From Acidobacteriota bacterium (GTDB lineage: Bacteria; Acidobacteriota; Blastocatellia; RBC074): a DNA stretch of 41,836 nucleotides. A program made the translations under genes and the position numbers. The notes beneath the pieces are model-generated. The model was given only the letters and a program-made list of their open reading frames with translations. It was not told the origin of the DNA and did no database searches. The DNA lies in the NCBI GenBank assembly GCA_041160645.1, contig JBEAVZ010000113.1, forward strand, positions 1 to 41,836. The letters run 5' to 3'. Positions within the stretch are counted from its first letter, which is position 1; every line of letters begins with the position of its first letter. Positions 1,435-14,155 of the stretch are shown here, one piece after another.

Positions 1435-3174
1435 TCAGTGTATCTCAGGTTCCGGTGTCGGGGCTCCGGCTTCGAGAAAGTCGAAGTCGCACCCTTCGTG
1501 CGCCTGTCGAACCCGCTCGGAGAAGATGGCCCCATAGCCACGCTGATAGTGCGGCGCCGGACGCACCCAGCGTTCACGCCGCCGGGCGAGCTCGTCGTCG
1601 CTGATTCGCAGTTCAAGCCGCCGCCCGGCGAGGTCGAGCTCGATCAGATCCCCATCTTCGACCAGCGCAAGCGGTCCACCGATGAAGCTCTCGGGTGAAA
1701 CGTGCAGGACACAGGTGCCGTACGAGGTGCCGCTCATTCGCGCATCTGAGATACGCACCAGATCACGTACCCCTTCGCGCAGCAGCTTCCGTGGAATCGG
1801 AAGCATCCCCCATTCCGGCATTCCCGGACCACCAAGGGGACCGGCATGCTTGAGGACCAGGACCGAATTGGCGTCGACAGGGAGCGAATCGTCATCGATG
1901 CGCGCCGCCATGTCATTATAATCCTGGAAGACGACCGCCCGTCCGGTGTGCTGCAACAGCCGTGGAGTCGCGGCCGTAGGCTTGATCACCGCGCCATTTG
2001 GAGCCAGATTGCCAAAGAGCACTGCGGTGCCGCCCTGCCGGGCAACCGGATTGTCGATCGTCCGGATCACCTCCGGCTTGAAGATTCGCGCCCCGGCAAT
2101 ATTCTCACCAAGACTCTTTCCATTGACCGTCAGGCAGGTCAGGTCGAGGAGATCGGTCAGCTGCGCCTGCAAGGCCCGGAGTCCACCGGCATAGTAGAAG
2201 TCCTCCATCAGAAACTCTCCGGAGGGGCGGATGTTGGCGAGCATCGGCGTCCGCTGCGATATCTCATCGAATCTCCCGAGGTTGAGCGGAATCCCGGCCC
2301 GGCCGGCCATGGCCAGGAGATGGACGATCGCGTTGGTCGATCCGCCAATCGCCATATCGACGGTGATCGCATTGTCGAAGGAGGCCACGGAGAGGAGATG
2401 GCTCGGCTTCAGATCCTCCCAGACCATCTCGACGATCCGCCGGCCACAGGCGGAGGCCATGCGTGAGTGGTTGGCATCGACGGCCGGAATCGAGGAAGCC
2501 CCGGGCAGGGTCAGTCCAAGCGTTTCGGCCATGGCCGTCATGGTCGAAGCAGTGCCCATCGTCATGCAATGGCCAGGCGAGCGGGCGATTCCATCCTCGA
2601 TCGCGTTCCAATCAGCGGTGGAGAGATTGCCGGCGCAGCGCTCCGCCCAGTACTTCCAGCCATCACTTCCACTCCCCAGCACCTGCCCCTGCCAGTTGCC
2701 GCGCAACATCGGGCCCGCCGGCAGATAGATCAGGGGCAGATCGACCGAGAAGGCGCCCATCAGGAGCCCGGGGGTCGTCTTATCGCAGCCCCCCATGAGG
2801 ACCACACCGTCGATCGGCTGGCTCCGCAGCAACTCCTCCACCTCCATGGCGAGCAGGTTGCGATAGAGGAGCGGACTCGGCTTCATAAAGATCTCGTTGA
2901 CGGGCATCGCCGGGATCTCGACTGGAAACCCACCCGCCTGGAGCACCCCGCGCTTCACCTCCTGCGCCCGGTCACGGAAATGGGTGTGGCAGATCGTCAG
3001 ATCACTCCAGGTGTTGATAATGCCGATGACCGGTTTCCCGGCATAGTCCTCGCTGCCATAGCCCATCTGCTTGAGGCGTGATCGATGCCCAAACGACCGC
3101 AGATCGTCGGGACGGAGCCACCGGGCACTCCTCAATTCATCCGCTCGCTTGCGATTTCCACCGTCTGCCATCAC
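1435..3174 (-). CDS. IlvD/Edd-family dehydratase (dihydroxy-acid or sugar-acid dehydratase)
   Basis: 579-aa ORF with the family motif MGGCDKTTPGLLMGA and C-terminal SDARMSGTSYGTCVLHVSPE. It lies immediately downstream of a GntP permease, which favours a sugar-acid (aldonate) dehydratase role. Confidence 0.85.
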   Translation of the reverse strand: MMADGGNRKRADELRSARWLRPDDLRSFGHRSRLKQMGYGSEDYAGKPVIGIINTWSDLTICHTHFRDRAQEVKRGVLQAGGFPVEIPAMPVNEIFMKPSPLLYRNLLAMEVEELLRSQPIDGVVLMGGCDKTTPGLLMGAFSVDLPLIYLPAGPMLRGNWQGQVLGSGSDGWKYWAERCAGNLSTADWNAIEDGIARSPGHCMTMGTASTMTAMAETLGLTLPGASSIPAVDANHSRMASACGRRIVEMVWEDLKPSHLLSVASFDNAITVDMAIGGSTNAIVHLLAMAGRAGIPLNLGRFDEISQRTPMLANIRPSGEFLMEDFYYAGGLRALQAQLTDLLDLTCLTVNGKSLGENIAGARIFKPEVIRTIDNPVARQGGTAVLFGNLAPNGAVIKPTAATPRLLQHTGRAVVFQDYNDMAARIDDDSLPVDANSVLVLKHAGPLGGPGMPEWGMLPIPRKLLREGVRDLVRISDARMSGTSYGTCVLHVSPESFIGGPLALVEDGDLIELDLAGRRLELRISDDELARRRERWVRPAPHYQRGYGAIFSERVRQAHEGCDFDFLEAGAPTPEPEIH

Positions 3175-5430: not shown

Positions 5431-6885
5431 ATGGCGAAGAACAAGGTCTTGGTAGTCGATGATGAATCATCGATCCGTTACACTCTCGGCGAAGCCCTGC
5501 GCGGTTGGGGGTATGACTATGTCGAGGCGGGATCGATCAAAGAAGCGCTGGATCTGTTCGAGAATGAGCATCCCCTGGTTGTGCTGCAGGATCTCCACCT
5601 TCCTGACGGATCTGGCCTCGACGCCCTGCGTGAGTACAAGTCGCGCCATCAACAATCGGTCATTATTATGATGACCGGGAACATCCTCCTCGACGACACC
5701 ATCTCTGCCCTGCGTGGCGGCGCCTACGATTTCATCAGAAAACCGATCAATCTGCGCGAGTTGCAAGTGACGATCCGGAATGGAATCGAGGCTGGCACAC
5801 TGCGGCGTGAAGTGCGGACCCTCCGCAATGAACAGGCGCGTCAGTTTGGGTTTGACCAGATCATCGGCACTTCGCCCGCTATGCGCGAGATGATCGCCCT
5901 GGCGAAGAAGGTGGCCTCGAGTGAAGCCTCGGCGGTCCTGCTCCAGGGTGAGAGTGGCACCGGTAAGGATCTGCTGGCCAAAGCAATCCACTATGGCTCA
6001 TCGCGCGGCAACCAACCCTTCATCGCCATCAATATTGCCGCGATTCCGGGGACGCTGATCGAGAGTGAACTCTTCGGGCACGAAAAGGGCGCTTTCACTG
6101 ACGCCAAGAACCGCAAGGAGGGTCTCTTCGAGCAGGCCCAGGGCGGGACGATCTTCCTCGATGAGATTGGCGAACTCGAACTGAACCTCCAGGCCAAACT
6201 GCTCCGCGTCCTCGAAGAGGGGTCTTTTCGCCGCGTTGGCGGTTTGAAAGACCACCCGCTCGACGTGCGGGTGATAGCCGCCTCCAACCGCGACCTGAAG
6301 GGGGAGAGCGAAAGCAACCGGTTTCGGATCGACCTCTACTATCGACTCTCGGTGATCCAGATCGATCTGCCGCCCCTGCGCGAACGCGGAGATGACGTGC
6401 TCGGACTCGCCAAGCATTATATTCAGCACTTCAACCAGACGCTCCGCAAACGTATTGCGGGGCTGACGCCGCCGGTCGAGGAGATCTTCCGCCACTACCA
6501 CTGGCCGGGGAATGTCCGTGAGCTGCGAAACGTGATCGAGCGAGCGATGATTCTTGAAGATACGGACCAGATCACTCCGATCTGGCTCCCGCGCGATCTG
6601 ACCCGCGAGGATGAATGGAGCCTCCGGTCAACTCAAGCGGGCCAAGTTGGCCCGAATACTCCTCCCCCGTCCATCGTCAATCAAGCTTCGTCGCCCCATC
6701 ACAACGGTCATCAATCCCGGTCGCCATTCGTCATGCCGGAGAGCGGAATCAACCTCGAGCAGGTCGAACTCTCACTGGTTCAACAGGCCATGGAGCGCAG
6801 CGGAGGAAATCAGACCCGGGCGGCGGAACTGCTCGGAATTTCTCGGGACCAGTTGCGCTACCGCCTCAAGAAGATCGAGGCGTGA
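5431..6885 (+). CDS. Sigma-54-dependent response regulator (NtrC family: REC + AAA+ + Fis-type HTH)
   Basis: REC domain (KVLVVDDE ... [13 protein letters not shown]). Walker [22 protein letters not shown]-type loop present as EKGAFTDA. C-terminal [25 protein letters not shown]. Confidence 0.9.
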
Positions 6886-6980: not shown

Positions 6981-7928
6981 ATGAGAGAGTCGATGCGAGT
7001 TTTAATCCCTGTTGACGGTTCAGAGTCGAGTCTGTCGGTCATCGACCAGGCGGCGCTGATTCCCTGGACGAACGGAAGCCGTTTGCTGATCCTGGGCGTG
7101 GCCGAGATGCCCTCGACGCTCATGGCCGGCCCCATCCCCATGCCGGGAACCTACTATCAGGAGTGGGAGAAGGCGCTCGAAGATCAAGCTGCCAGGAATA
7201 TCGACCAGGCGCTCAAAAGATATGTCGGGGCGGGCGGCGCCGAGGAGATGGTCACAACCCTGACTATGCGCGGAAACACCAAGGAGGCGATCATCGACGA
7301 GGCGGAGAAGTTCGGAGCCGACCTGATCATGATCGGCACCCACGGCTACAATGCACTCGAGCGAATGTGGCTCGGCTCGGTCTCCCGCACTGTCGCCACG
7401 CACGCGGGGTGCTCGGTTGAGATTGTTCGTCCACGCCAGGACGCGGCCCCGGGCGGGGGGATGAAACTGCTCGTGGCGGTCGATGGATCATCTTTTGGCG
7501 AGGCAGCCGTGACCGAGGTGGCCAACCGCCCGTGGCCGGATGGAAGCGAGGTCCGGGTTATCACCGCAATCCACCTGCCCTTCGCTCCCACACCGGAGGC
7601 CTGGGTCCTGCCGGATGAGTTCTATGCCCAGGCGGAGAAGCACAGTCGCGACCAGGCTGAGGTAACGCTCCGCCGCGCCGCGCAGATAATTGAAGAGGGC
7701 AACGCGGCACGGGCCGTTCCGCTCGGTTTCAGCAGCGAGGCGATCCTTGGCCATGCGGAAGAGGTAATTCTCGCGGCCGCCAGAGAGTGGCCGGCCGATC
7801 TGATCCTGGTCGGTTCGCACGGCCACCGGGCGTGGGAGCGCTTCATGCTTGGTTCGGTGTCCCAGGCGGTCGCTTGGCACGCCCACTGCTCGGTAGAGAT
7901 CGTCCGCTCAATTCCGGGAGGCAGATAA
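6981..7928 (+). CDS. Tandem universal stress protein (two UspA domains)
   Basis: Two repeats of the Usp pattern: VLIPVDGS ... IMIGTHGYNALERMWLGSVSRTVATHAGCSVEIVR, and LLVAVDGS ... ILVGSHGHRAWERFMLGSVSQAVAWHAHCSVEIVR. ACGGAGA sits 8 nt upstream of the ATG. Confidence 0.85.
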   Translation: MRESMRVLIPVDGSESSLSVIDQAALIPWTNGSRLLILGVAEMPSTLMAGPIPMPGTYYQEWEKALEDQAARNIDQALKRYVGAGGAEEMVTTLTMRGNTKEAIIDEAEKFGADLIMIGTHGYNALERMWLGSVSRTVATHAGCSVEIVRPRQDAAPGGGMKLLVAVDGSSFGEAAVTEVANRPWPDGSEVRVITAIHLPFAPTPEAWVLPDEFYAQAEKHSRDQAEVTLRRAAQIIEEGNAARAVPLGFSSEAILGHAEEVILAAAREWPADLILVGSHGHRAWERFMLGSVSQAVAWHAHCSVEIVRSIPGGR

Positions 7929-8365
7929 TGCAGCTCGGGAAGTTGCCCTCCGCCGCGGCGATCGCCATCCTTGACGAGTCATCTCTCGGGAGACTTGGCT
8001 GCATCGCAAATGGCCGACCCTATGTTGTGCCGGTCTACTATTTTTTTGACGGGCAGGACATCTACATCCATTCGCTGCCCGGGCTGAAGATCGAAGCACT
8101 GCGGACAAACCCGGCCGCCTGTCTGCAGGTTGACCAGATCCGTGATGCTTATCATTGGCGCAGCGTCATTGTGGCGGGGGTCTATGAAGAGGTTGGGCCT
8201 GACGATCAGGAGCGCGAGAAGATTCTGGCCAGACTCTACCAGCGGCTCCCACATCTCAGCCCGGTCGAATCACGGAGCGAGTCGCGGGGTGATGAGTTGA
8301 TCGTTTTTCGCCTCAGGATTGAGGAGATAACCGGCGTGGGAGAAGAGTGGTCATGGAAAAGCTGA
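7928..8365 (+). CDS. Pyridoxamine-5'-phosphate-oxidase-family (NimA-like) flavin or deazaflavin-binding protein
   Basis: The ATG at 7928 overlaps the Usp stop (TAATG). MQLGKL ... [50 protein letters not shown] ... [13 protein letters not shown] fits the split-barrel PNPOx_2 pattern. The upstream part of the track ORF (7787-) is out-of-frame overlap with usp. Confidence 0.7.
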
Positions 8366-9939
8366 CAACCGAGGCGGAGCCTGGAACTGACCAGCAGGTC
8401 GAGAAGACGTTCAAGCTGAATGACGAATGGCTGGCCGGCATTCTCGCCTCGGCCATGGATGCGATCATCACCATCGACGAGCAGCACCGGATTGTCCTCT
8501 TCAACCAGGCGGCTGAACGGATGTTCCGGTACGAAGCGACGGCGGTTCTGGGGACGTCGCTCGACCGGTTGCTTCCGGACCGGTATCGACAGGCCCACGA
8601 AAAACATATCGACGAGTTTGGCCGCACCAAGGTCACCCAGCGACAGATGGGTCAGATCCGCCCCCTCTCCGGACTCCGGTCCAATGGGGAAGAGTTCCCG
8701 ATCGAGGCGTCGATCTCGCAGATCAAAGCTGATGGTCAGCGCCTCTTCACGGTCATCATTCGCGATATTACCGAGAAGAAGCGGCTCGAGTCGCAGTTGC
8801 TGCGGGCCCAGCGGATGGAGAGTATCGGAACCCTGGCCGGCGGCATCGCCCACGATCTGAACAATGTGCTCTCCCCGATCCTGACAGCGACGGAACTGCT
8901 GCAGATGCGCACTTCCAGCGAGAGCGACGAGGGGACCCTCCGGCTGCTGAACATCATCCAGACCAACGCCGTGCGCGGCGGGGAGATGATCCGGCAGGTT
9001 CTCTCCTTCGCCCGTGGCGTCGACGGGGACTACAGCCAGCTTCAACCGAATCATCTGATCCGAGAGATCGTCAAGATCCTGAGCGACATCTTCCCAAAGA
9101 ATATCGAGATCAGTTTCTCCATCAACGCCAACCTCTGGTACGTCTATGGCGACGCCACACAGCTTCACCAGGTGCTCATGAACCTCTGCGTCAACGCCCG
9201 TGACGCGATGCCTGATGGTGGAAAGTTGCGGATCGAGGCCGAGAATATCGAGGTTGACGAACACTATGCCCGGATGAACGTGGAGGCCAAACCCGGCCGG
9301 TACGTGCGTTTGCTGGTCCAGGATAACGGCTCCGGGATTCCGGGAGAGATTCTCGACAAGATCTTCGATCCGTTCTTTACGACCAAGAAGCCGGGTCAGG
9401 GAACCGGTCTTGGCCTTTCGACGGTGGCCGGAATCCTGCGCAGCCACGGCGGCTTCGTCAACGTCTACAGTGAGGTCGACAAGGGCACCCACTTCACCAT
9501 CTATCTCCCGGCGAGCCAGAACCAGCAGGCGGTCGCGGCGCCGGCAGCCAAGGTCGATCTGCCGACTGGTCAGGGCGAGTTGATTCTGGTCGTTGATGAC
9601 GAGCCGTCGATTCGGGAGGTGGCCCGGGAGACCCTGCTGACCTTTGGCTACCGAGTGGTCACGGCTAACGATGGGACTGATGCCCTCGCCCAGTTTGCGA
9701 CCCATCGTCACGAGATCAGACTGGTCATCACCGATATGATGATGCCATTTATGGATGGTCCGGCGACCATTCGCGCACTGCGCAAGCTCGATCCGGAGGT
9801 GCGGGTCATCGCCACCAGTGGACTCAAGGCCAATGCGCGCCACGCCGAGATCTCGCAACTTGGGGTCAACAGTTTTCTGACCAAGCCTTATACCGCTGAA
9901 ACATTGATTCGCACGATCGCGGCAGTCCTCGAATCGTGA
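8353..9939 (+). CDS. PAS-domain hybrid sensor histidine kinase with C-terminal receiver domain
   Basis: PAS region ([29 protein letters not shown]). H-box [15 protein letters not shown]-box [13 protein letters not shown]-boxes DNGSGI and GTGLGLS. REC domain ([11 protein letters not shown] ... [11 protein letters not shown]). The ATG at 8353 has GGAGAAG upstream and overlaps the preceding gene by 13 nt. Confidence 0.9.
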
Positions 9940-10022
9940 CGAGTCAGGTTGGCGATCACGGGTGAGGCTGGACCTGGTGGTTGGTGGCCAATCGCCAGGA
10001 TCGGAAGGGCCGCCAGCCGCTT

Positions 10023-10057
10023 CAGAGCCCATTCGTCCGGCAAGAGAGTGGGCTCTG
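10023..10057 (+). terminator. Hairpin (9-bp stem CAGAGCCCA/TGGGCTCTG, 17-nt loop) about 85 nt after the kinase stop; no U-tract
   Basis: Arms 10023-10031 and 10049-10057 are exact complements. No T-run follows, so a terminator function is uncertain. Confidence 0.25.
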
Positions 10058-10286
10058 ATCAAACTGGCATATCACGACCGGGGGAGTGGTGGTCAGAGGC
10101 GGGATGCCCTCCGCTGCTGGAGCGCTGACCCTGGAGGCTCGACCAGTGATCAGCGACTCCCGCAGAGAGGTTGGCTGAGGACGCAGACTTTATAAACAGG
10201 CCAAATAATCAGGCCAGATTAAATGGCCAGACAGAGTTTTCGGATAACCCTCGCAAATTGATGTTCAACTGTTGTTCAGTAATGTC

Positions 10287-10390
10287 CCTCACGAGAAGAG
10301 GAGGTCCGGGATACTTACATTCCAGCGCATCGGCCACCCCTAGCTACTCTGCACTACCATGCCCATACCCATCACTCTCTTCTCGTGAGG
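10287..10390. repeat. 14-bp perfect inverted repeat (CCTCACGAGAAGAG ... CTCTTCTCGTGAGG) enclosing 76 nt
   Basis: Arms 10287-10300 and 10377-10390 are exact reverse complements. The unit lies inside a gene-free region and has no flanking direct duplication. Confidence 0.7.
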
Positions 10391-10474
10391 CTTCTTGCCG
10401 TGGAGACTGGTCTCTGCGGCAATCACCAGCGGTGTAACAAGGTGGCCTGCCGACCTGAAAGCGGCGCGTAGCGA

Positions 10475-10510
10475 ACCTCGCGCCCGACCTCGCGCCCGAC
10501 CTTGCGTGTG
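10475..10510. repeat. 12-bp tandem repeat ACCTCGCGCCCG x3 (third unit diverged)
   Basis: acctcgcgcccg / acctcgcgcccg / accttgcgtgtg, read directly. Confidence 0.7.
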
Positions 10511-10805
10511 GTCGACCTCACGCCTGTCTCCCCTGATTGGAGACAGCCCTTGTACACCGGGATTTGTATCTTCAAAGAACTGATTCGGAAAAGAACAGCT
10601 TCGGAGACGACGTTAAGTCGGTGGAAGAAGTTCTGATCGACCCACGCCAAAGGCTCGCGAGTGTGGCTTGGGCTGGCTGAGCTATCACAAACTATTGCGC
10701 GTGGGTCAGAGTGTGCTCTTATCGCTGGCCTGGCGAGGGGAGGATGGCGGCCGCCCCTCCAGACCGTTCCTGTTTTGCTGCGCACCCGGGCTTCATTGCC
10801 GAGAG

Positions 10806-10840
10806 AGCCGGCTCGTTCAGTTCCCGGCTTTTCTGTTTTC
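10806..10840 (+). terminator. Terminator-like hairpin AGCCGG-12 nt-CCGGCT followed by TTTTCTGTTTTC (plus strand)
   Basis: 6-bp GC stem (10806-10811 with 10824-10829) plus a U-rich tail at 10830-10840. The stem is short and the loop long, so confidence is modest. Confidence 0.35.
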
Positions 10841-10880
10841 CATTACGCTCATTACGCTCATAACGCCCATTACGCATTAC
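10841..10880. repeat. 9-bp tandem repeat CATTACGCT, about 4 units
   Basis: cattacgct / cattacgct / cataacgcc / cattacgca / ttac..., read directly. It begins immediately after the terminator-like hairpin. Confidence 0.75.
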
Positions 10881-10960
10881 TGGTACCTCTTCTTTGTCGG
10901 GATTCTGGCTGCTCTGGTCTCCTCTTTTGTCGCGAGCCCGTTTTCTTATCTCCCGGCTCC

Positions 10961-11116
10961 TGACTTCCCCACTCCCGACTTCCCACTCCTGACTTCTCAC
11001 TCCCGACTTCTCACTCCTGACTTCCCACTCCCTACTGGCCACTCCTGACTTCTCACTCCCTACTTCTCACTCCCTACTGGCCACTCCCGACTTCTCACTC
11101 CCTACTGGCCGCTTCC
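10961..11116. repeat. 14-bp tandem array, 11 units (YGACTTCYCACTCC / CTACTGGCCACTCC / CTACTTCTCACTCC variants)
   Basis: Unit boundaries read directly: 10961, 10976, 10990, 11004, 11018, 11032, 11046, 11060, 11074, 11088 and 11102. The first and last units are 15 nt. The period is not a multiple of 3. The plus strand is pyrimidine-rich, and the minus strand reads GGAGUGRGAAGUCR. Confidence 0.9.
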
Positions 11117-11137
11117 GGACCGGGGCCGACCGGGGAG

Positions 11138-11171
11138 AGGCAGGCGATCCTGCCCCCAGGATCACCTGCCT
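11138..11171. other. Strong hairpin: 15-bp stem (one C-A mismatch) with CCCC loop
   Basis: AGGCAGGCGATCCTG (11138-11152), cccc, CAGGATCACCTGCCT (11157-11171). No U-tract on either strand. Confidence 0.7.
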
Positions 11172-11215
11172 TGTGGACCATCAGCGACGATCGATGACCT
11201 TTCAGTAAATACCCT

Positions 11216-11269
11216 TTGTCATCGAACCCGTCGCATTTGCTTTATAAAGACGTGAGAATTTCTCTCCAA
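11216..11269. promoter_or_regulatory. AT-rich promoter-like region around the palindrome CTTTATAAAG: minus strand TTGGAG-17 nt-TATAAA; plus strand TTGTCA-19 nt-TTTATA
   Basis: Minus strand: -35 is the reverse complement of 11264-11269, -10 is the reverse complement of 11241-11246, with an exact 17-nt spacer. Plus strand: TTGTCA at 11216-11221 and TTTATA at 11241-11246, with a long 19-nt spacer. Hexamer matching by eye only. Confidence 0.3.
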
Positions 11270-11500
11270 TTCCCTCCATTCCCAACTTTATTTTATCTCT
11301 GGAAGTTTTCTTTCGACGGCCGGTGGATCCATGATTGAATGTGGCGGGTGTGGTGAAAGACGCGGGGCGGCGAGATCCATCTTCCGCTTCGAACCCAGCT
11401 TGTGCCGCGAGATTCCACAGGCACGATGAAGCGTATCGACAATATGGCTGACGGGATGAAGGTCTTCCCGGACCTTGACGGTCCGGGGGAGGAGAAGAGA

Positions 11501-14155
11501 TTGAATTCACGATCATACATGCTGAGCACCACGGCGGTCCTCGAGTCCCTGACCGTCGACAGCCAAACCGGGCTCGCGGCTGAAGAGGTCATCCGGCGGC
11601 GCGCGCGGACGGGGTGGAATCGGCTCGCGGAGGTGCGTGGACTTCAGCCCTGGCGAATCTTCCTCGCCCAGTTTAAGAGTCTGGTCATTGGCCTCCTGGG
11701 AGTTGCGGCAACCGTGGCCTGGGTGACGGGCGGGCGGATCGAAGCGCTGGCGATCCTGGTCGTCCTGCTGGTCAACGCCCTGATCGGTTTTCTGATGGAG
11801 TGGCAGGCCGGGCGGGCACTGGAAGCGTTGCGCCGGCAGACAAGATCGCTGGCGCGGGTTCGGCGTGACGGTGTTGAGGAGGTGGTTGAAGCGGAAGAGT
11901 TGGTGCCCGGGGATATCGTCATTCTCAATCCCGGGGATCGGGTTCCGGCAGATCTGCGCCTGATCGAGGCCGCGAATCTGCGGACGGAGGAGTCGGCGCT
12001 GACGGGTGAGAGCACGCCGGTCAATAAGTCGACCGACCCGGTGGGCGAGGGCACATTGCTCGCCGAGCGCTATTCGATGGTCTACCTTGGCACATCGGTC
12101 GCGGCGGGGCGGGCGATTGGCGTGGTGACAGAGACCGGGAGCGCAACGGAGCTCGGCAAAATCGGCACGCTGGTGGCGGAGACGGCGGATGAAGTGACCC
12201 CACTGCGGCAGCAACTGGACGATCTGGGTCGGCAGTTGGTCTACCTGGTCCTCGGGATTGGAGTGGTGATCTTCTTCGCCGGCTGGTGGCGTGGGGATGG
12301 GTTGCTGGTCATGCTCGAGACGGCGATCAGCCTTGCCGTAGCCGCAGTTCCCGAGGGTCTGCCGACGGTGACGACCCTGATTCTGGCATTGGGAGTATTG
12401 CGAATGGCGCGGGCCAACGCGATCGTCCGCCACTTGCCGGCGGTGGAGACGCTCGGCAGCGCCACCGTAATCTGCACCGACAAGACGGGCACGCTGACCG
12501 AGAACCGGATGGTCGTGCGTGAATTCCGGCTTGGAGATGGTCGAACCATCAGCGTCGGGACGACCGGGGCGCGCAGAGAGCCGGAGGTCGATCAATTGTG
12601 GCGACGAACGCTGGAGGCGGCGGCGCTCTGCAATGAAGCCTCACTGAGTGGCCGTGGGGAGACGATTGGCGATCCGACCGAGACGGCGCTGCTCGAATCG
12701 GCGCGTGACTTTGGCGTCGACATCGACCAGCTGCGCCTTGGTTTTCCGAAGGTGGCCGAAGAGCCTTTCGACACGGCAACGCGCCGCATGATCACCGTTC
12801 ACCGGCAGGCTGAGGGAGGCGAGCGAGTGTGTCTGAAAGGGGCGCCATCGGTCGTCCTCGGCATGTGCTCCGGAGTTGCCATCGGCGGCGCGGCGGGGGA
12901 TGGCGTAGCGATCATCGAATTGAGCGAGGAGCGTCGACAAGTGCTGCGTGAGCAGAACGAGGAGATGGCCGGCAAAGCGCTGCGGGTCCTCGCGATCGCC
13001 GAGAAGCGGGCTGACGGTTCGATCAGTGATCGTGACCAGGGTTACCATTTTCTGGGCCTGATTGGCATGCTCGATCCACCACGCCGCGAGGCGGCCCCGG
13101 CGATCGAAAGGGCCTATGAGGCCGGGATTCGCGTGATCATGCTGACCGGAGATCAGTTGAATACGGCCCGGGCCATCGCCCGCGAGTTGCGGATCGAGGA
13201 ACGGGGAGAGCTGGTGGCGCGCCACGCCCGGGAGCTAGCCGCGGTAAGTGGTCCGGAACTGGCCAGGCTGGCCGGGAGCGTTCAGGTCTTTGCGCGGGTC
13301 TCACCGGAGGACAAACTGCGCATCGTCGAGGCGCTGAAGGAGGCCGGGGAGGTGGTCGCGGTGACGGGCGATGGGGTGAACGACGCTCCGGCGCTGAAAC
13401 GGGCGGATATCGGCGTGGCCATGGGGCAGCGGGGGACGGAGACTGCCCGTGAGGCGGCCGATGTCGTGCTTACCGACGACAACTTCGCGACGATCATCAA
13501 GGCGGTTGAGGGTGGACGGACCATCTATGCCAACATCGCCAAATTTGTCCAGTTGATGCTCTCGGAGAATCTGGCCGAGGTCATCTTTATCTTTCTGGCG
13601 ATCGTGCTCGGTCTGCCGTTGCCGCTCCTGCCGCTCCAGATTCTCTGGATCAACCTGGTGACTGACATCTTTCCGGCGCTGGCCCTCGCCCTTGAACCGC
13701 CATCCGCCGAGATTATGAAGAGCCCTCCCCGGCGGGCCGCAAACTCGATGCTCTCCGGATCGTTCTTTGTGCTGGTTGGCTGGCAGGGGCTCATGCTCGC
13801 GCTGATCTGTCTGGGATACTATATGCTCGCGCTGGAGAAGTATGGGCCGGGCGAGCATGCCCGGACGATCGCCCTCTTCACCGTCATCGGTGTCCAGGTC
13901 GGGCATCTCTTCAACTGTCGTTCACGGGTCAGATCGGCCTTCGAAGGACTCTTCGTCAATCGCTATATCTGGCTGGCAATCCTCGTCGTCGGGATTCTGC
14001 AACTGCTGGCGGTCTATCTCGAGCCGCTTCCAACACTACTGCAGACCCGGCTGATCGACCAGACCGATCTGGCGGCGATTATCGGGTCGATCATTCTTCC
14101 CGTCCTGATCGTCGAGGCGGTCAAACTGGTCTCGCGGCTGCGTCAGCGCGGATAG
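11501..14155 (+). CDS. P-type cation-transporting ATPase (P2/P3-like, Ca2+/Mg2+-type)
   Basis: Motifs ALTGES, AAVPEGLP, ICTDKTGTLTEN (phosphorylation Asp) and TGDGVNDAPALKRADIGVAMG. The start is uncertain. I favour the in-frame TTG at 11501, 6 nt after GGAGGAG (11488-11494). Alternatives are ATG 11519, ATG 11426 and the track start GTG 11402. Confidence 0.85.
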   Translation: MNSRSYMLSTTAVLESLTVDSQTGLAAEEVIRRRARTGWNRLAEVRGLQPWRIFLAQFKSLVIGLLGVAATVAWVTGGRIEALAILVVLLVNALIGFLMEWQAGRALEALRRQTRSLARVRRDGVEEVVEAEELVPGDIVILNPGDRVPADLRLIEAANLRTEESALTGESTPVNKSTDPVGEGTLLAERYSMVYLGTSVAAGRAIGVVTETGSATELGKIGTLVAETADEVTPLRQQLDDLGRQLVYLVLGIGVVIFFAGWWRGDGLLVMLETAISLAVAAVPEGLPTVTTLILALGVLRMARANAIVRHLPAVETLGSATVICTDKTGTLTENRMVVREFRLGDGRTISVGTTGARREPEVDQLWRRTLEAAALCNEASLSGRGETIGDPTETALLESARDFGVDIDQLRLGFPKVAEEPFDTATRRMITVHRQAEGGERVCLKGAPSVVLGMCSGVAIGGAAGDGVAIIELSEERRQVLREQNEEMAGKALRVLAIAEKRADGSISDRDQGYHFLGLIGMLDPPRREAAPAIERAYEAGIRVIMLTGDQLNTARAIARELRIEERGELVARHARELAAVSGPELARLAGSVQVFARVSPEDKLRIVEALKEAGEVVAVTGDGVNDAPALKRADIGVAMGQRGTETAREAADVVLTDDNFATIIKAVEGGRTIYANIAKFVQLMLSENLAEVIFIFLAIVLGLPLPLLPLQILWINLVTDIFPALALALEPPSAEIMKSPPRRAANSMLSGSFFVLVGWQGLMLALICLGYYMLALEKYGPGEHARTIALFTVIGVQVGHLFNCRSRVRSAFEGLFVNRYIWLAILVVGILQLLAVYLEPLPTLLQTRLIDQTDLAAIIGSIILPVLIVEAVKLVSRLRQRG

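Follow-up and report, generated by a model that had tools for sequence, protein, structure and literature searches.

A variable 14-nucleotide tandem array in the spacer between a hybrid histidine kinase gene and a P-type ATPase gene of a putative freshwater planctomycete

The kinase-ATPase spacer and its conserved blocks

The window, that is, the whole stretch of 41,836 nucleotides that was analysed, contains a spacer of 1.46 kb that separates a hybrid histidine kinase gene (end at 9939) from the gene of a type II (Ca-type) P-type ATPase (start at 11402), and it is in this spacer that the tandem array under study is found (Table 1). According to Pfam matches, a sigma-54 activator, a Usp protein and the hybrid kinase itself are encoded just upstream of the spacer, while the best relative of the ATPase in named genomes, its own genus left out, is 58% identical to it; such relatives did not help in comparing the upstream region. 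The array occupies the variable middle of the spacer, between two conserved structured blocks designated A and B.

Block A bounds the variable repeat zone on its left side, has an invariant core (CGGCCACCCCTAGCTACTCTGCA, at 10331-10353) and is matched in 14 of the 87 genomes of the family. Its structure was taken from single-sequence folds, given that RNAalifold returned only 2 pairs because the variable arms of the stem were misaligned. The idea of one long RNA with A and B as its conserved ends was considered and is weakened by the situation in other genera, where block A comes after the kinase and the next 3-4 kb contain no ATPase; in one genus, block A is present without the kinase.

The first part of block B directly adjoins the right end of the array. 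The block folds with -62.7 kcal/mol (z -3.4), and in the region of hairpin 1 compensatory changes are seen in 5 of the 19 predicted pairs among 7 sequences of the genus. The stem of hairpin 2 is retained with a different sequence in sister species, as read by eye from the alignment, and, in the predicted fold, hairpin 2 followed by ATTTGCTTTAT looks like a terminator-like element of the plus strand, which the terminator scan omits because the loop exceeds its length rule. That scan gave one site, a weak one on the minus strand (10228-10212), against a mean of 1.1 in shuffled sequences, and a search of Rfam over 9800-11700 gave no match at E values up to 1.

The conserved AT-rich motif at the end of block B may be the -10 region of the ATPase promoter. 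It coincides with the -10 element of a minus-strand promoter, TTGGAG-17-TATAAA, that an earlier note on this DNA had proposed. The string is indeed present in the sequence, but a consensus scan of 9900-11500 yielded 0 sigma-70-like sites and TTGGAG is not conserved in the sister species; furthermore, the TATAAA falls in a perfect palindrome (CTTTATAAAG) that reads alike on both strands. An informal inspection of the genus alignment by eye revealed no genus-conserved sigma-54 site of the form GG-N10-GC. The distance from the array to the ATPase open reading frame is 292 nt, with the conserved structured block B in between, and approximately 130 nt of conserved structure separate the array from the AT-rich motif.

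Table 1. Genes, repeats and conserved elements of the kinase-ATPase locus (positions in the window)
Feature	Position	Strand	Basis
Hybrid histidine kinase gene, upstream	8347..9939	+	Pfam: PAS, HisKA, HATPase_c, receiver
13-nt x 1.9 array (ATAAACAGGCCAA)	10192..10216	.	TRF
Conserved block A, long hairpin	10281..10424	.	Family-genome matches, alignment, folds
12-nt x 2.7 array (ACCTCGCGCCCG)	10475..10506	.	TRF
16-nt x 2.0 repeat	10574..10605	.	TRF
9-nt x 3.9 array (CATTACGCT)	10841..10875	.	TRF
14-nt x 11 tandem array	10957..11110	.	TRF, units in register, shuffle control, stops in six frames
Block B part 1: small GC hairpin, then hairpin 1 (GGCAGGCGATCCTG-CCCC-CAGGATCACCTGCC)	11117..11171	.	Fold, covariation
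Block B part 2: hairpin 2 (GCGACGATCGATGAC...GTCATCGAACCCGTCGC) then ATTTGCTTTAT	11184..11246	+	Fold; alignment read by eye
Conserved AT-rich motif CTTTATAAAGACGTGAGA (TTAATATAGACGTGA in sister species)	11241..11258	.	Alignment
Type II (Ca-type) P-type ATPase gene, downstream	11402..14155	+	Pfam; NCBIfam TIGR01522 667 bits, below cut-off

Structure and composition of the array

The earlier note had described an 11-unit array with a period of 14 nt, three unit variants and an alternation of variants in units 6-11, and all of this holds when the units are read in register, although the array starts at 10957 and not at 10961. From that position, 11 units follow one another head to tail, in the variants ACTCCYGACTTCCC, ACTCCYGACTTCTC and ACTCCCTACTGGCC, and the pattern decays on the right side past approximately 11110. 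TRF reports 10957-11106 as a repeat of period 14 (10.6 copies, 80% matches, score 172) and also finds the higher-order periods 28 (5.1 copies, 84%, score 197) and 42 (3.5 copies, 87%, score 207); among 50 dinucleotide-shuffled versions of the window, the best score was 72. Each unit can be read as two diverged heptamers, e.g., ACTCCYG and ACTTCYC, and the half-units ACTCCCG and ACTTCCC are identical at 5 of 7 positions; period 7 is absent from the TRF output, which gives 14, 28 and 42 only. The exact copy number is assembly-dependent, with a short-read assembly behind it.

Every one of the six frames contains at least one stop codon within 10957-11110, so the array is non-coding, and the open reading frames that overlap it gave no Pfam match. 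Since the units are contiguous, it is not a CRISPR array either, and on both points the earlier reading stands. The minus strand does read (GGAGUGRGAAGUCR)n, as had been claimed: the pattern GGAGTGRGAAGTCR has 6 exact matches and 1 with a single mismatch, every one of them within the array, and, when up to 2 mismatches are allowed, 9 matches in the window against 1.3 expected, a number that none of 100 shuffles reached.

The composition of the array is strongly asymmetric. On its plus strand, C makes up 50% and G 8% of the 154 nt, pyrimidines amount to 78%, and YC dimers number 52. This strand contains 11 CTCC motifs but 10 CACTCC, not the 11 that had been counted before; the minus strand carries 11 GGAG, 14 GGA and 8 A(N)GGA. 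With a C minus G value of 44 per 100 nt, it surpasses every other 100-nt window of the genome in its excess of C over G (in windows taken every 10 bases on both strands, the 99th percentile is 20, the 99.9th is 28 and the maximum is 43), and only 21 of the 330 intergenic arrays of the genome equal its asymmetry of purines and pyrimidines between strands. The plus strand of the array, folded as RNA, is predicted to be nearly unpaired (minimum free energy -14.2 kcal/mol, z -0.7) and the centroid fold of the minus strand is almost fully open. No canonical four-tract G-quadruplex or i-motif was found on either strand of 10901-11200.

Tandem arrays in the host genome

We infer that the freshwater host is a planctomycete, from the lineage-typical domain PSD1 (PF07587), which has 15 matches in the genome, all above the cut-off, and 0 in 14 control genomes, rather than from a marker-gene tree. 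The assembly is 88% complete and comprises 568 contigs. No other array of the unit was found in it, nor any other exact copy of any unit variant, and the 10 isolated single matches with 1 mismatch outside the array compare with 13 for a reversed control pattern. The possibility that the repeat is simply a common genome-wide microsatellite thus fails for the unit itself, while it is true of the class to which the array belongs, whose unit-diverse members are common throughout the genome.

A census of TRF repeats with a score of at least 50 reduced 656 rows to 533 non-redundant arrays, with periods of 7-23 and many unrelated units. Divided according to a crude gene caller (2902 genes, 86% coding), 330 of these arrays are intergenic, 179 coding and 24 mixed, which corresponds to about 637 per Mb of intergenic DNA and 54 per Mb of coding DNA; 18,073 of the 517,757 intergenic bases lie in arrays. 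The period is divisible by 3 in 154 of 179 coding arrays vs. 163 of 330 intergenic ones. Density per kb is 0.44 in convergent, 0.62 in tandem and 0.74 in divergent spacers, the median relative position of the intergenic arrays is 0.49 and so is their mean sense-strand pyrimidine fraction; in terms of density, position and pyrimidine fraction, the arrays of this genome show no functional placement. An anchoring of arrays by hairpins was not seen either, given that 641 flanks (40 nt) taken from the 330 intergenic arrays are no more structured than a control set of 1500 intergenic windows (mean minimum free energy -7.5 vs. -8.1, nearly equal within GC bins), although the array studied here does adjoin a GC hairpin. 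There are 46 arrays within 100 bp of a contig end and, considering also the 568 contigs, the census probably under-counts them. With regard to mismatch repair as a possible cause, MutL is matched with 538 bits, and for MutS1 the 88%-complete assembly gives a partial match only, which at 145 bits stays below the cut-off.

The same site in sister species

The order histidine kinase, spacer and P-type ATPase, together with the two structured blocks, is common to the sister species compared (all except G002). Six sister genomes have both the kinase with block A and the ATPase with block B, with the locus of G007 split across two contigs; in G006 only the kinase and block B were found, and the first bases of its contig C283, at which the ATPase should start, gave no ATPase match. 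The arrays that lie between the blocks are other ones: CAATTCGGG in 4.1 copies (G004), AAGAGACAAGAAAC in 5.9 (G001), CCCGGTGTGG in 8.1 (G008) and GAATTCCTTGGGC in 5.3 (G007), with unit lengths of 9, 10, 13 and 14 nt. The unit of the array described here is conserved in none of the sister species compared. In the pair G001 and G004 the flanks are near-identical, CAATTCGGG occurs four times in G004 and once in G001, and an array of the TTTCTTGTCTC type is present in G001 and absent from G004. Read from the sequences of this pair, the arrays appear to be born in place. Related repeats occur in other genera of the class, as CACTCCC in 11 copies (G012) and GGAGTGA in 19.6 (G035); a CTTCTGA-type array of G033 has 27.9 copies of a 14-nt unit, and TCCTGAC and GAAGTCA arrays are found in G029 and G020.

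These comparisons bear on the proposal that the minus-strand RNA is a sponge whose GGA and GGAG motifs titrate a CsrA/RsmE-type protein or ribosomes. Like the CsrB/RsmZ RNAs, the array has one strand densely set with many GGA or A(N)GGA motifs, the spacer is included in contigs from RNA libraries, and the weak site at 10228-10212 could be taken for a minus-strand terminator. In contrast to those RNAs, the sequence is unconserved and without an Rfam match, the promoter suggested for this strand fails the scan and has a non-conserved -35, and the terminator-like site is at the level of shuffled sequences. The array RNA is essentially unpaired, so that the GGA motifs lie outside hairpin loops, and the search for csrA/rsmE homologues with PF02599 gave 0 matches in the 88%-complete genome, whereas control genomes do score; matches occur in 1 of the 8 sister genomes and in 5 of all 41 genomes. 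The sponge is therefore a very improbable explanation.

Variation between lake samples

Fifteen sequencing runs contain at least half of the words sampled from 10500-11500, and the habitat of the matching samples is given as freshwater and lake metagenomes. Contigs assembled from other runs differ from the window by whole units: those of X15 and X16 have 13 additional nucleotides after 10196, i.e., one extra unit of the 13-nt array, and those of X6, X15 and X16 lack 9 nt at 10841, which makes the 9-nt array one unit shorter. At the 14-nt array itself, contigs of other lake samples show a deletion of 15 nt at its left edge (10951), swaps of unit variants at 11093-11095 and 11103, and an alternative 3' end in which GGCCGCTTCCGACT is repeated. 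In none of four other runs does a contig span the 14-nt array, and changes in unit number are thus read from the neighbouring arrays; at the 12-nt array the contigs of all four runs break, their pieces ending or starting at 10480-10506. Together with the different arrays of the sister species, these differences support the earlier suggestion of a slippage-prone tract. A joint in X3 that skips 131 nt (10191 to 10323) is anchored by only 27 on one side and probably comes from a sister species.

Could the array have been created by the assembly of a short-read metagenome bin? The number of contigs, the 46 of 533 arrays close to a contig end and the lack of a bridging contig in the four runs would be in keeping with this. 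Nevertheless, contigs of X3, an independent DNA run, cover 10892-11293 completely and differ from it in few places, and the region is represented in the 15 runs mentioned above. An artefact is thus extremely improbable.

The polymorphism is also an argument for a contingency tract, in which the gain or loss of 14-nt units would alter the distance or the helical phase of an upstream element with respect to the ATPase promoter and thereby switch expression of the ATPase. The array is upstream of the ATPase and adjoins block B, 14 bp is a non-integer number of helical turns, and the sigma-54 activator, Usp protein and hybrid kinase just upstream make a regulated promoter plausible. With the contingency loci of Neisseria and Haemophilus the array shares a slippage-prone tract upstream of a gene and, as seen in neighbouring arrays of its spacer, differences in unit number among populations. 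The tracts of those organisms are built of 1-7 nt units and are placed within an open reading frame or a core promoter. The array described here, by contrast, measures 154 nt, is one of hundreds distributed over all kinds of spacers, and lies outside any open reading frame and, by 292 nt and block B, apart from the ATPase start, which is not the placement of a contingency locus. In addition, the ATPase promoter is not placed by the scan or by eye, convergent spacers, which are without promoters, are about as array-dense (0.44 vs. 0.62-0.74 per kb), and the sister arrays at this site have quite different unit lengths. All in all, a switch of this kind seems distinctly unlikely.

RNA-library contigs and a possible role in Rho loading

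Six metatranscriptome runs (X15-X20) contain the spacer, and in two of them, which belong to different studies, contigs include the spacer with parts of the array and the 3' end of the kinase gene. This fits with transcription of the spacer, the contigs giving no strand, ends or level. They stop at 11050 (X15) and 11193 (X16), both loose ends, and the body of the ATPase gene is without cover from RNA contigs except for one of X16 (11399-11549). Given that the stops fall at different places in the two runs and that contigs drop rare sequence, this is not evidence for a silent ATPase or for the end of a transcript. Per-contig depth is 46 at the kinase end, 72-186 in the spacer and 2.2 at the ATPase start, figures that cannot rank genes.

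If the spacer is transcribed from the kinase side, the array might load Rho on the transcript of the kinase operon and stop it before the ATPase promoter, so that the number of units would tune the insulation between the genes. The array resembles rut sites in being a C-rich, G-poor and unstructured stretch of more than 80 nt with many YC dimers, it holds the strongest C-over-G skew of the genome, and a full-length rho gene is present (723 bits). Regular tandem arrays are not known among rut sites. The sister species point in both directions: the sense-strand C minus G maxima of the spacers of G003 and G001 (30 and 24) exceed 20, the 99th percentile of the genome of the window, but those of G004 and G007 (incomplete) reach only 19 and 12, and the sister arrays are not all G-poor, as CCCGGTGTGG illustrates. 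Moreover, the arrays have no sense-strand pyrimidine bias genome-wide, the contigs carry no strand from which that of a transcript could be read, and the plus-strand hairpins with the U-rich tail at 11184-11246 could terminate transcription independently of Rho. We consider Rho loading unlikely.

A broader version, to which we likewise assign a low probability, would regard the spacer as a non-coding plus-strand RNA in which the array serves either as a tunable pad for Rho or as a CU-rich decoy that draws off a protein or GGAG-bearing RNAs; in this version the Ca-type ATPase would be insulated from the sigma-54/Usp/hybrid-kinase operon with a strength that slippage varies between cells. If this were true, some planctomycete intergenic arrays would be selected for their composition and not for their sequence and, as Rho-loading or insulating elements, they would provide a function for a class that has been without one since the STRRs of cyanobacteria.

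Origin and turnover of the array

The array is an ordinary member of a known and unexplained class of repeats, one of several hundred unit-diverse intergenic arrays of its genome. The explanation that we favour, and regard as probable, is that it is a slippage-born, fast-turnover non-coding minisatellite of diverged heptamers without a sequence-specific role; the mechanism and the lack of function are what we infer here, next to the observed array, its genome-wide company, its lack of conservation and its polymorphism. Such an array would originate in place through replication slippage or unequal exchange and would grow by one to three units at a time from a 14-nt unit of heptamer origin; this would account for the higher-order periods of 28 and 42 nt. 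It would then turn over rapidly, both among populations and among species. Most likely the exact sequence is functionless, and any effect would be exerted through length or composition.

Several observations go against a purely neutral tract. The extreme C-over-G skew and strand asymmetry could reflect selection on composition, and this counts against the favoured explanation. The array directly adjoins a conserved, covarying hairpin; the spacer appears in RNA-library contigs and may belong to an RNA; and divergent spacers are somewhat richer in arrays per kb than convergent ones.

Comparison with known repeat families

Among the closest relatives of the array in kind are the long simple sequence repeats with heptanucleotide units. 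The STRR sequences of heterocystous cyanobacteria, reportedly described by Mazel et al. in 1990, are heptanucleotide repeats, and TAACTGA repeats are said to have been reported from Beggiatoaceae by MacGregor in 2015. Like the array, repeats of this type are short non-coding tandem units with an intergenic excess and an unexplained function; their number varies, and they are reported to be often transcribed. The likeness may extend to the unit, as the 14-mer can be read as two diverged heptamers, and other genera of the class have pure arrays of related heptamers. The difference lies in their distribution, as heptanucleotide repeats comprise few units dispersed at many loci, whereas here the unit forms a single array among many unrelated units; a canonical G-quadruplex motif and a TRF period of 7 are also absent here. 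Repeats of the GGGNATC type in Xanthomonas and Nostoc belong to the heptanucleotide group as well (Rehm et al., 2015, PMC4692102).

A second comparison is offered by lake Planctomycetota, for which disproportionately many structural variants have been described, with non-coding deletions often located at intergenic tandem repeats and attributed by the authors to polymerase slippage (Okazaki et al., 2022, PMC9426551). As far as that account of the deletions goes, those repeats and the present array have in common the freshwater or lake habitat, the phylum, the intergenic site, the gain or loss of whole units between populations, which here is seen in neighbouring arrays, and the proposed slippage. 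It deals with the repeats in bulk, without unit sequences and without characterising single variants, whereas here a single locus is followed with its sister-species history (Okazaki et al., 2022, PMC9426551). The locus provides a well-bounded example of the gain and loss of tandem arrays in planctomycete spacers, with conserved flanks, species-specific arrays and a 9-mer that is single copy in one member of a sister pair and present in four copies in the other. An example of this kind is of use in understanding why such genomes assemble poorly and why lake Planctomycetota have many structural variants, and in choosing loci for strain typing.

Structure and setting of the array

The array in the spacer between the kinase and ATPase genes is a real, non-coding and fast-evolving minisatellite, probably born of slippage. 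Tandem Repeats Finder (TRF) places it at 10957-11106, with 10.6 copies of a 14-nt unit, 80% matches and a score of 172, and detects higher-order periods of 28 nt (score 197) and 42 nt (score 207); among 50 dinucleotide shuffles of the window, the top score was 72. The location given in the earlier note holds, with the start corrected to 10957, and its description of 11 units in three variants, the last six alternating, is borne out when the array is read in register. Each 14-mer consists of two diverged heptamers. The minus-strand pattern GGAGTGRGAAGTCR has six exact matches and one with a single mismatch, all within the array, and the CACTCC motif does recur as had been claimed, but 10 times instead of 11. 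The view that the array is non-coding agrees with stops in all six frames inside it and with overlapping ORFs that lack a Pfam match.

The host genome comprises 3.80 Mb in 568 contigs (GC 0.607, completeness 88%), the window being one entire contig (C334), and its DNA is present in freshwater and lake metagenomes. The host organism is a planctomycete, since 15 PSD1-domain genes score over the cut-off, versus none in 14 control genomes. The kinase-ATPase spacer, of 1.46 kb, is a mosaic of small arrays detected by TRF. Elsewhere in the window, ARAGORN calls a plus-strand 98-nt tRNA-Val(cac) at 1538-1635; this call sits inside a minus-strand L-arabinonate / dihydroxy-acid dehydratase gene (1435-3174, 987 bits) and is probably false.

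Features of the locus, and arrays found at the same place in sister-species genomes (G001, G004, G007 and G008)
Feature	Position	Strand	Description
Sigma-54 activator gene	5431-6885	+	upstream of array
Tandem Usp protein gene	6981-7928	+	upstream of array
Hybrid histidine kinase gene	8347-9939	+	upstream of array
Block A	10281-10424 (core 10331-10353)		conserved non-coding hairpin, from sister comparison
Spacer arrays (TRF)			13 nt x 1.9; 12 nt x 2.7; 16 nt x 2; 9 nt x 3.9; 14 nt x 11
Block B	11117-11260		structured element conserved across the genus, close upstream of ATPase
P-type ATPase gene (type II, Ca-type)	11402-14155	+	downstream of array
G004 arrays	between blocks		CAATTCGGG x4.1 and TTGCCTGTCACTGC x2.1
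G001 array	between blocks		AAGAGACAAGAAAC x5.9
G008 array	between blocks		CCCGGTGTGG x8.1
G007 array	between blocks		GAATTCCTTGGGC x5.3

The locus in sister species and relatives

The kinase, the ATPase and the conserved blocks are all present in six sister genomes (G002 lies outside this comparison). The G007 locus is broken between two contigs, each of which ends in the spacer; G006 has the kinase, block A and block B, and the opening bases of its contig C283, the expected start of the ATPase, gave no ATPase match. Between blocks A and B, the array differs species by species. The pair formed by G004 and G001 (L004:1737-1830 and L005:1292-1380, respectively) is a clean example of array birth in situ: on near-identical flanks, the 9-mer CAATTCGGG is single in G001 and has four copies in G004, and a TTTCTTGTCTC-type array is present in G001 and absent from G004. 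These whole-array differences imply that arrays arise in place, from single-copy seeds.

Other genera of the class have pure heptamer arrays akin to the half-units (CACTCCC, GGAGTGA, CTTCTGA, TCCTGAC, GAAGTCA), and some resemblance is expected by chance, since each genome has hundreds of arrays and 41 genomes were searched. In G012, which belongs to a different genus of the same family, the related heptamers make up a dispersed family and are often arranged as inverted pairs. The GGGAGTG/CACTCCC heptamer occurs there in at least 10 arrays on several contigs (L115-L122), and in many of them (GGGAGTG)n is followed, after a gap of 10-25 nt, by (CCCCACT)n, a disposition that would form long hairpins.

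The proposal of the earlier note that a minus-strand RNA rich in GGA motifs titrates a CsrA-type protein is unsupported, no CsrA having been found in the host genome (88% complete), and is very improbable. CsrA was found in one of the eight sister genomes and in five of 41 genomes overall, in a search in which control genomes do score. The array unit is not conserved, and the minus-strand array RNA is essentially unpaired in the predicted fold, which places the GGA motifs outside hairpin loops; the array region has no Rfam match.

A composition-based role of the array in Rho loading is unlikely, although it is the main functional rival to a minisatellite that is simply a product of slippage. 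Among 100-nt windows of the genome, the array has the strongest skew of C over G (50% C, 8% G), its C-G value of 44 standing against a genome 99.9th percentile of 28; Rho-loading sites have this composition, the plus-strand RNA is predicted to be unstructured, and a rho gene is present. However, the sense-strand C-G maxima of the sister spacers are 30, 24, 19 and 12, so that the trend is weak.

Variation between lake populations

Assembled contigs from two DNA runs of other lake samples (X3, X6) and two metatranscriptome runs (X15, X16), from four different studies, were compared with the window. X15 and X16 have 13 nt inserted at 10196, which adds one unit to the 13-nt array, and X6, X15 and X16 lack 9 nt at 10841, which makes the 9-nt array one unit shorter. 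X15 has also lost 15 nt at the left edge of the 14-nt array. Contigs from other samples carry unit-variant swaps in the array at 11093-11095 and 11103, and X6, X15 and X16 share an alternative right end, with GGCCGCTTCCGACT repeated. No contig from the four runs bridges the 14-nt array; an artefact of a single assembly is ruled out, since X3 contigs cover each base of 10892-11293.

Contigs of the two metatranscriptome runs cover the end of the kinase gene, block A and spacer sequence that includes parts of the array, which fits transcription of the spacer, although such contigs carry neither strand nor ends and RNA libraries can include DNA.

Tandem arrays across the genome

TRF reports 656 rows for the host genome at a score of at least 50; merged, these amount to 533 arrays. 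Our crude gene calling (2902 genes, 86% coding) assigns 330 of them to intergenic and 179 to coding DNA, with 24 mixed, and gives a density of 637 per Mb in intergenic versus 54 per Mb in coding sequence; arrays make up 3.5% of intergenic bases. The period is divisible by three in 154 of the 179 coding arrays versus 163 of the 330 intergenic ones. Convergent, tandem and divergent spacers hold 0.44, 0.62 and 0.74 arrays per kb, respectively, and intergenic arrays show neither a favoured position within the spacer nor a strand bias relative to genes. The unit of the 14-nt array forms no second array and has no further exact copies elsewhere in this genome, where isolated one-mismatch copies are no commoner than with a reversed control pattern.

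Much of the fragmentation of this and the sister assemblies is probably due to tandem arrays, given that 46 of the 533 are no more than 100 bp from a contig end; the window itself starts within another 14-nt array (1-63, AGGGCCGACCCCGG x3.7). A dispersed 9-nt family near GGTCCCACT comprises 47 arrays that match it with no more than two mismatches, whatever the rotation or strand, and that reach 22 copies (e.g., C288:626-828, C101:7-185, C80:20459-20617). By the crude gene calls, 41 of the 47 are intergenic; most lie within short open frames only, and the few in long ORFs could code for collagen-like Gly-Pro-Thr repeats.

Conserved elements flanking the repeat zone

Block A, left of the variable repeat zone, is present in single copy and spans about 90-130 nt. 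All 12 distinct sequences examined are predicted to fold as a long hairpin, with a closing stem that varies in sequence between genera and an invariant 23-nt apical core, CGGCCACCCCTAGCTACTCTGCA. Among 87 genomes of the family, 14 carry block A, and these belong to four genera; it usually lies 170-300 nt after a hybrid kinase gene, and it is 3' of the kinase in three of these genera, in two of them without the ATPase. With no Rfam match, block A is a candidate new structured RNA motif. Just 5' of it, at 10164-10196, a 27-nt stretch (GGCTGAGGACGCAGACTT...) conserved in G007 and G003 terminates in a second CTTTATAAA motif, resembling that of block B; it is ~10 nt from block A in G007 versus ~95 nt, including the 13-nt repeat, in the window.

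Block B, to the right, has a predicted fold of -62.7 kcal/mol (z -3.4). In its hairpin 1, five of 19 predicted pairs show compensatory double changes among seven sequences of the genus. Hairpin 2 (11184-11235) is kept in sister species despite a different sequence and is followed by U-rich AUUUGCUUUAU, so that together they look like a plus-strand terminator; a terminator scan did not call the hairpin, its loop being outside the loop rule of the scan. An AT-rich conserved motif of the TTAATAtAGACGTGA type, 3' of hairpin 2, may be part of the ATPase promoter, and block B as a whole may act as terminator, leader or promoter region. From the position of this motif, the array is probably upstream of the ATPase promoter and not within the ATPase leader. 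A contingency role, in which the array would set the spacing between a promoter and the ATPase gene, is decidedly improbable. The minus-strand promoter-like site of the earlier note fails a consensus scan. Its -10 falls in the palindrome CTTTATAAAG, identical on both strands, and sister species do not conserve its -35.

Comparison with known repeat classes

Satellites are described as few in most bacteria (Subirana and Messeguer, 2019, PMC6749651). The heptamer repeats of Xanthomonas and Nostoc are reported to be abundant, to lie between genes, to vary in number and, for the most part, to be transcribed (Rehm et al., 2015, PMC4692102). Lake Planctomycetota are reported to carry disproportionately many structural variants, and their non-coding deletions to fall often at intergenic tandem repeats, with polymerase slippage as the proposed cause (Okazaki et al., 2022, PMC9426551). 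The 14-nt array is an ordinary member of this repeat class, already known from freshwater Planctomycetota.
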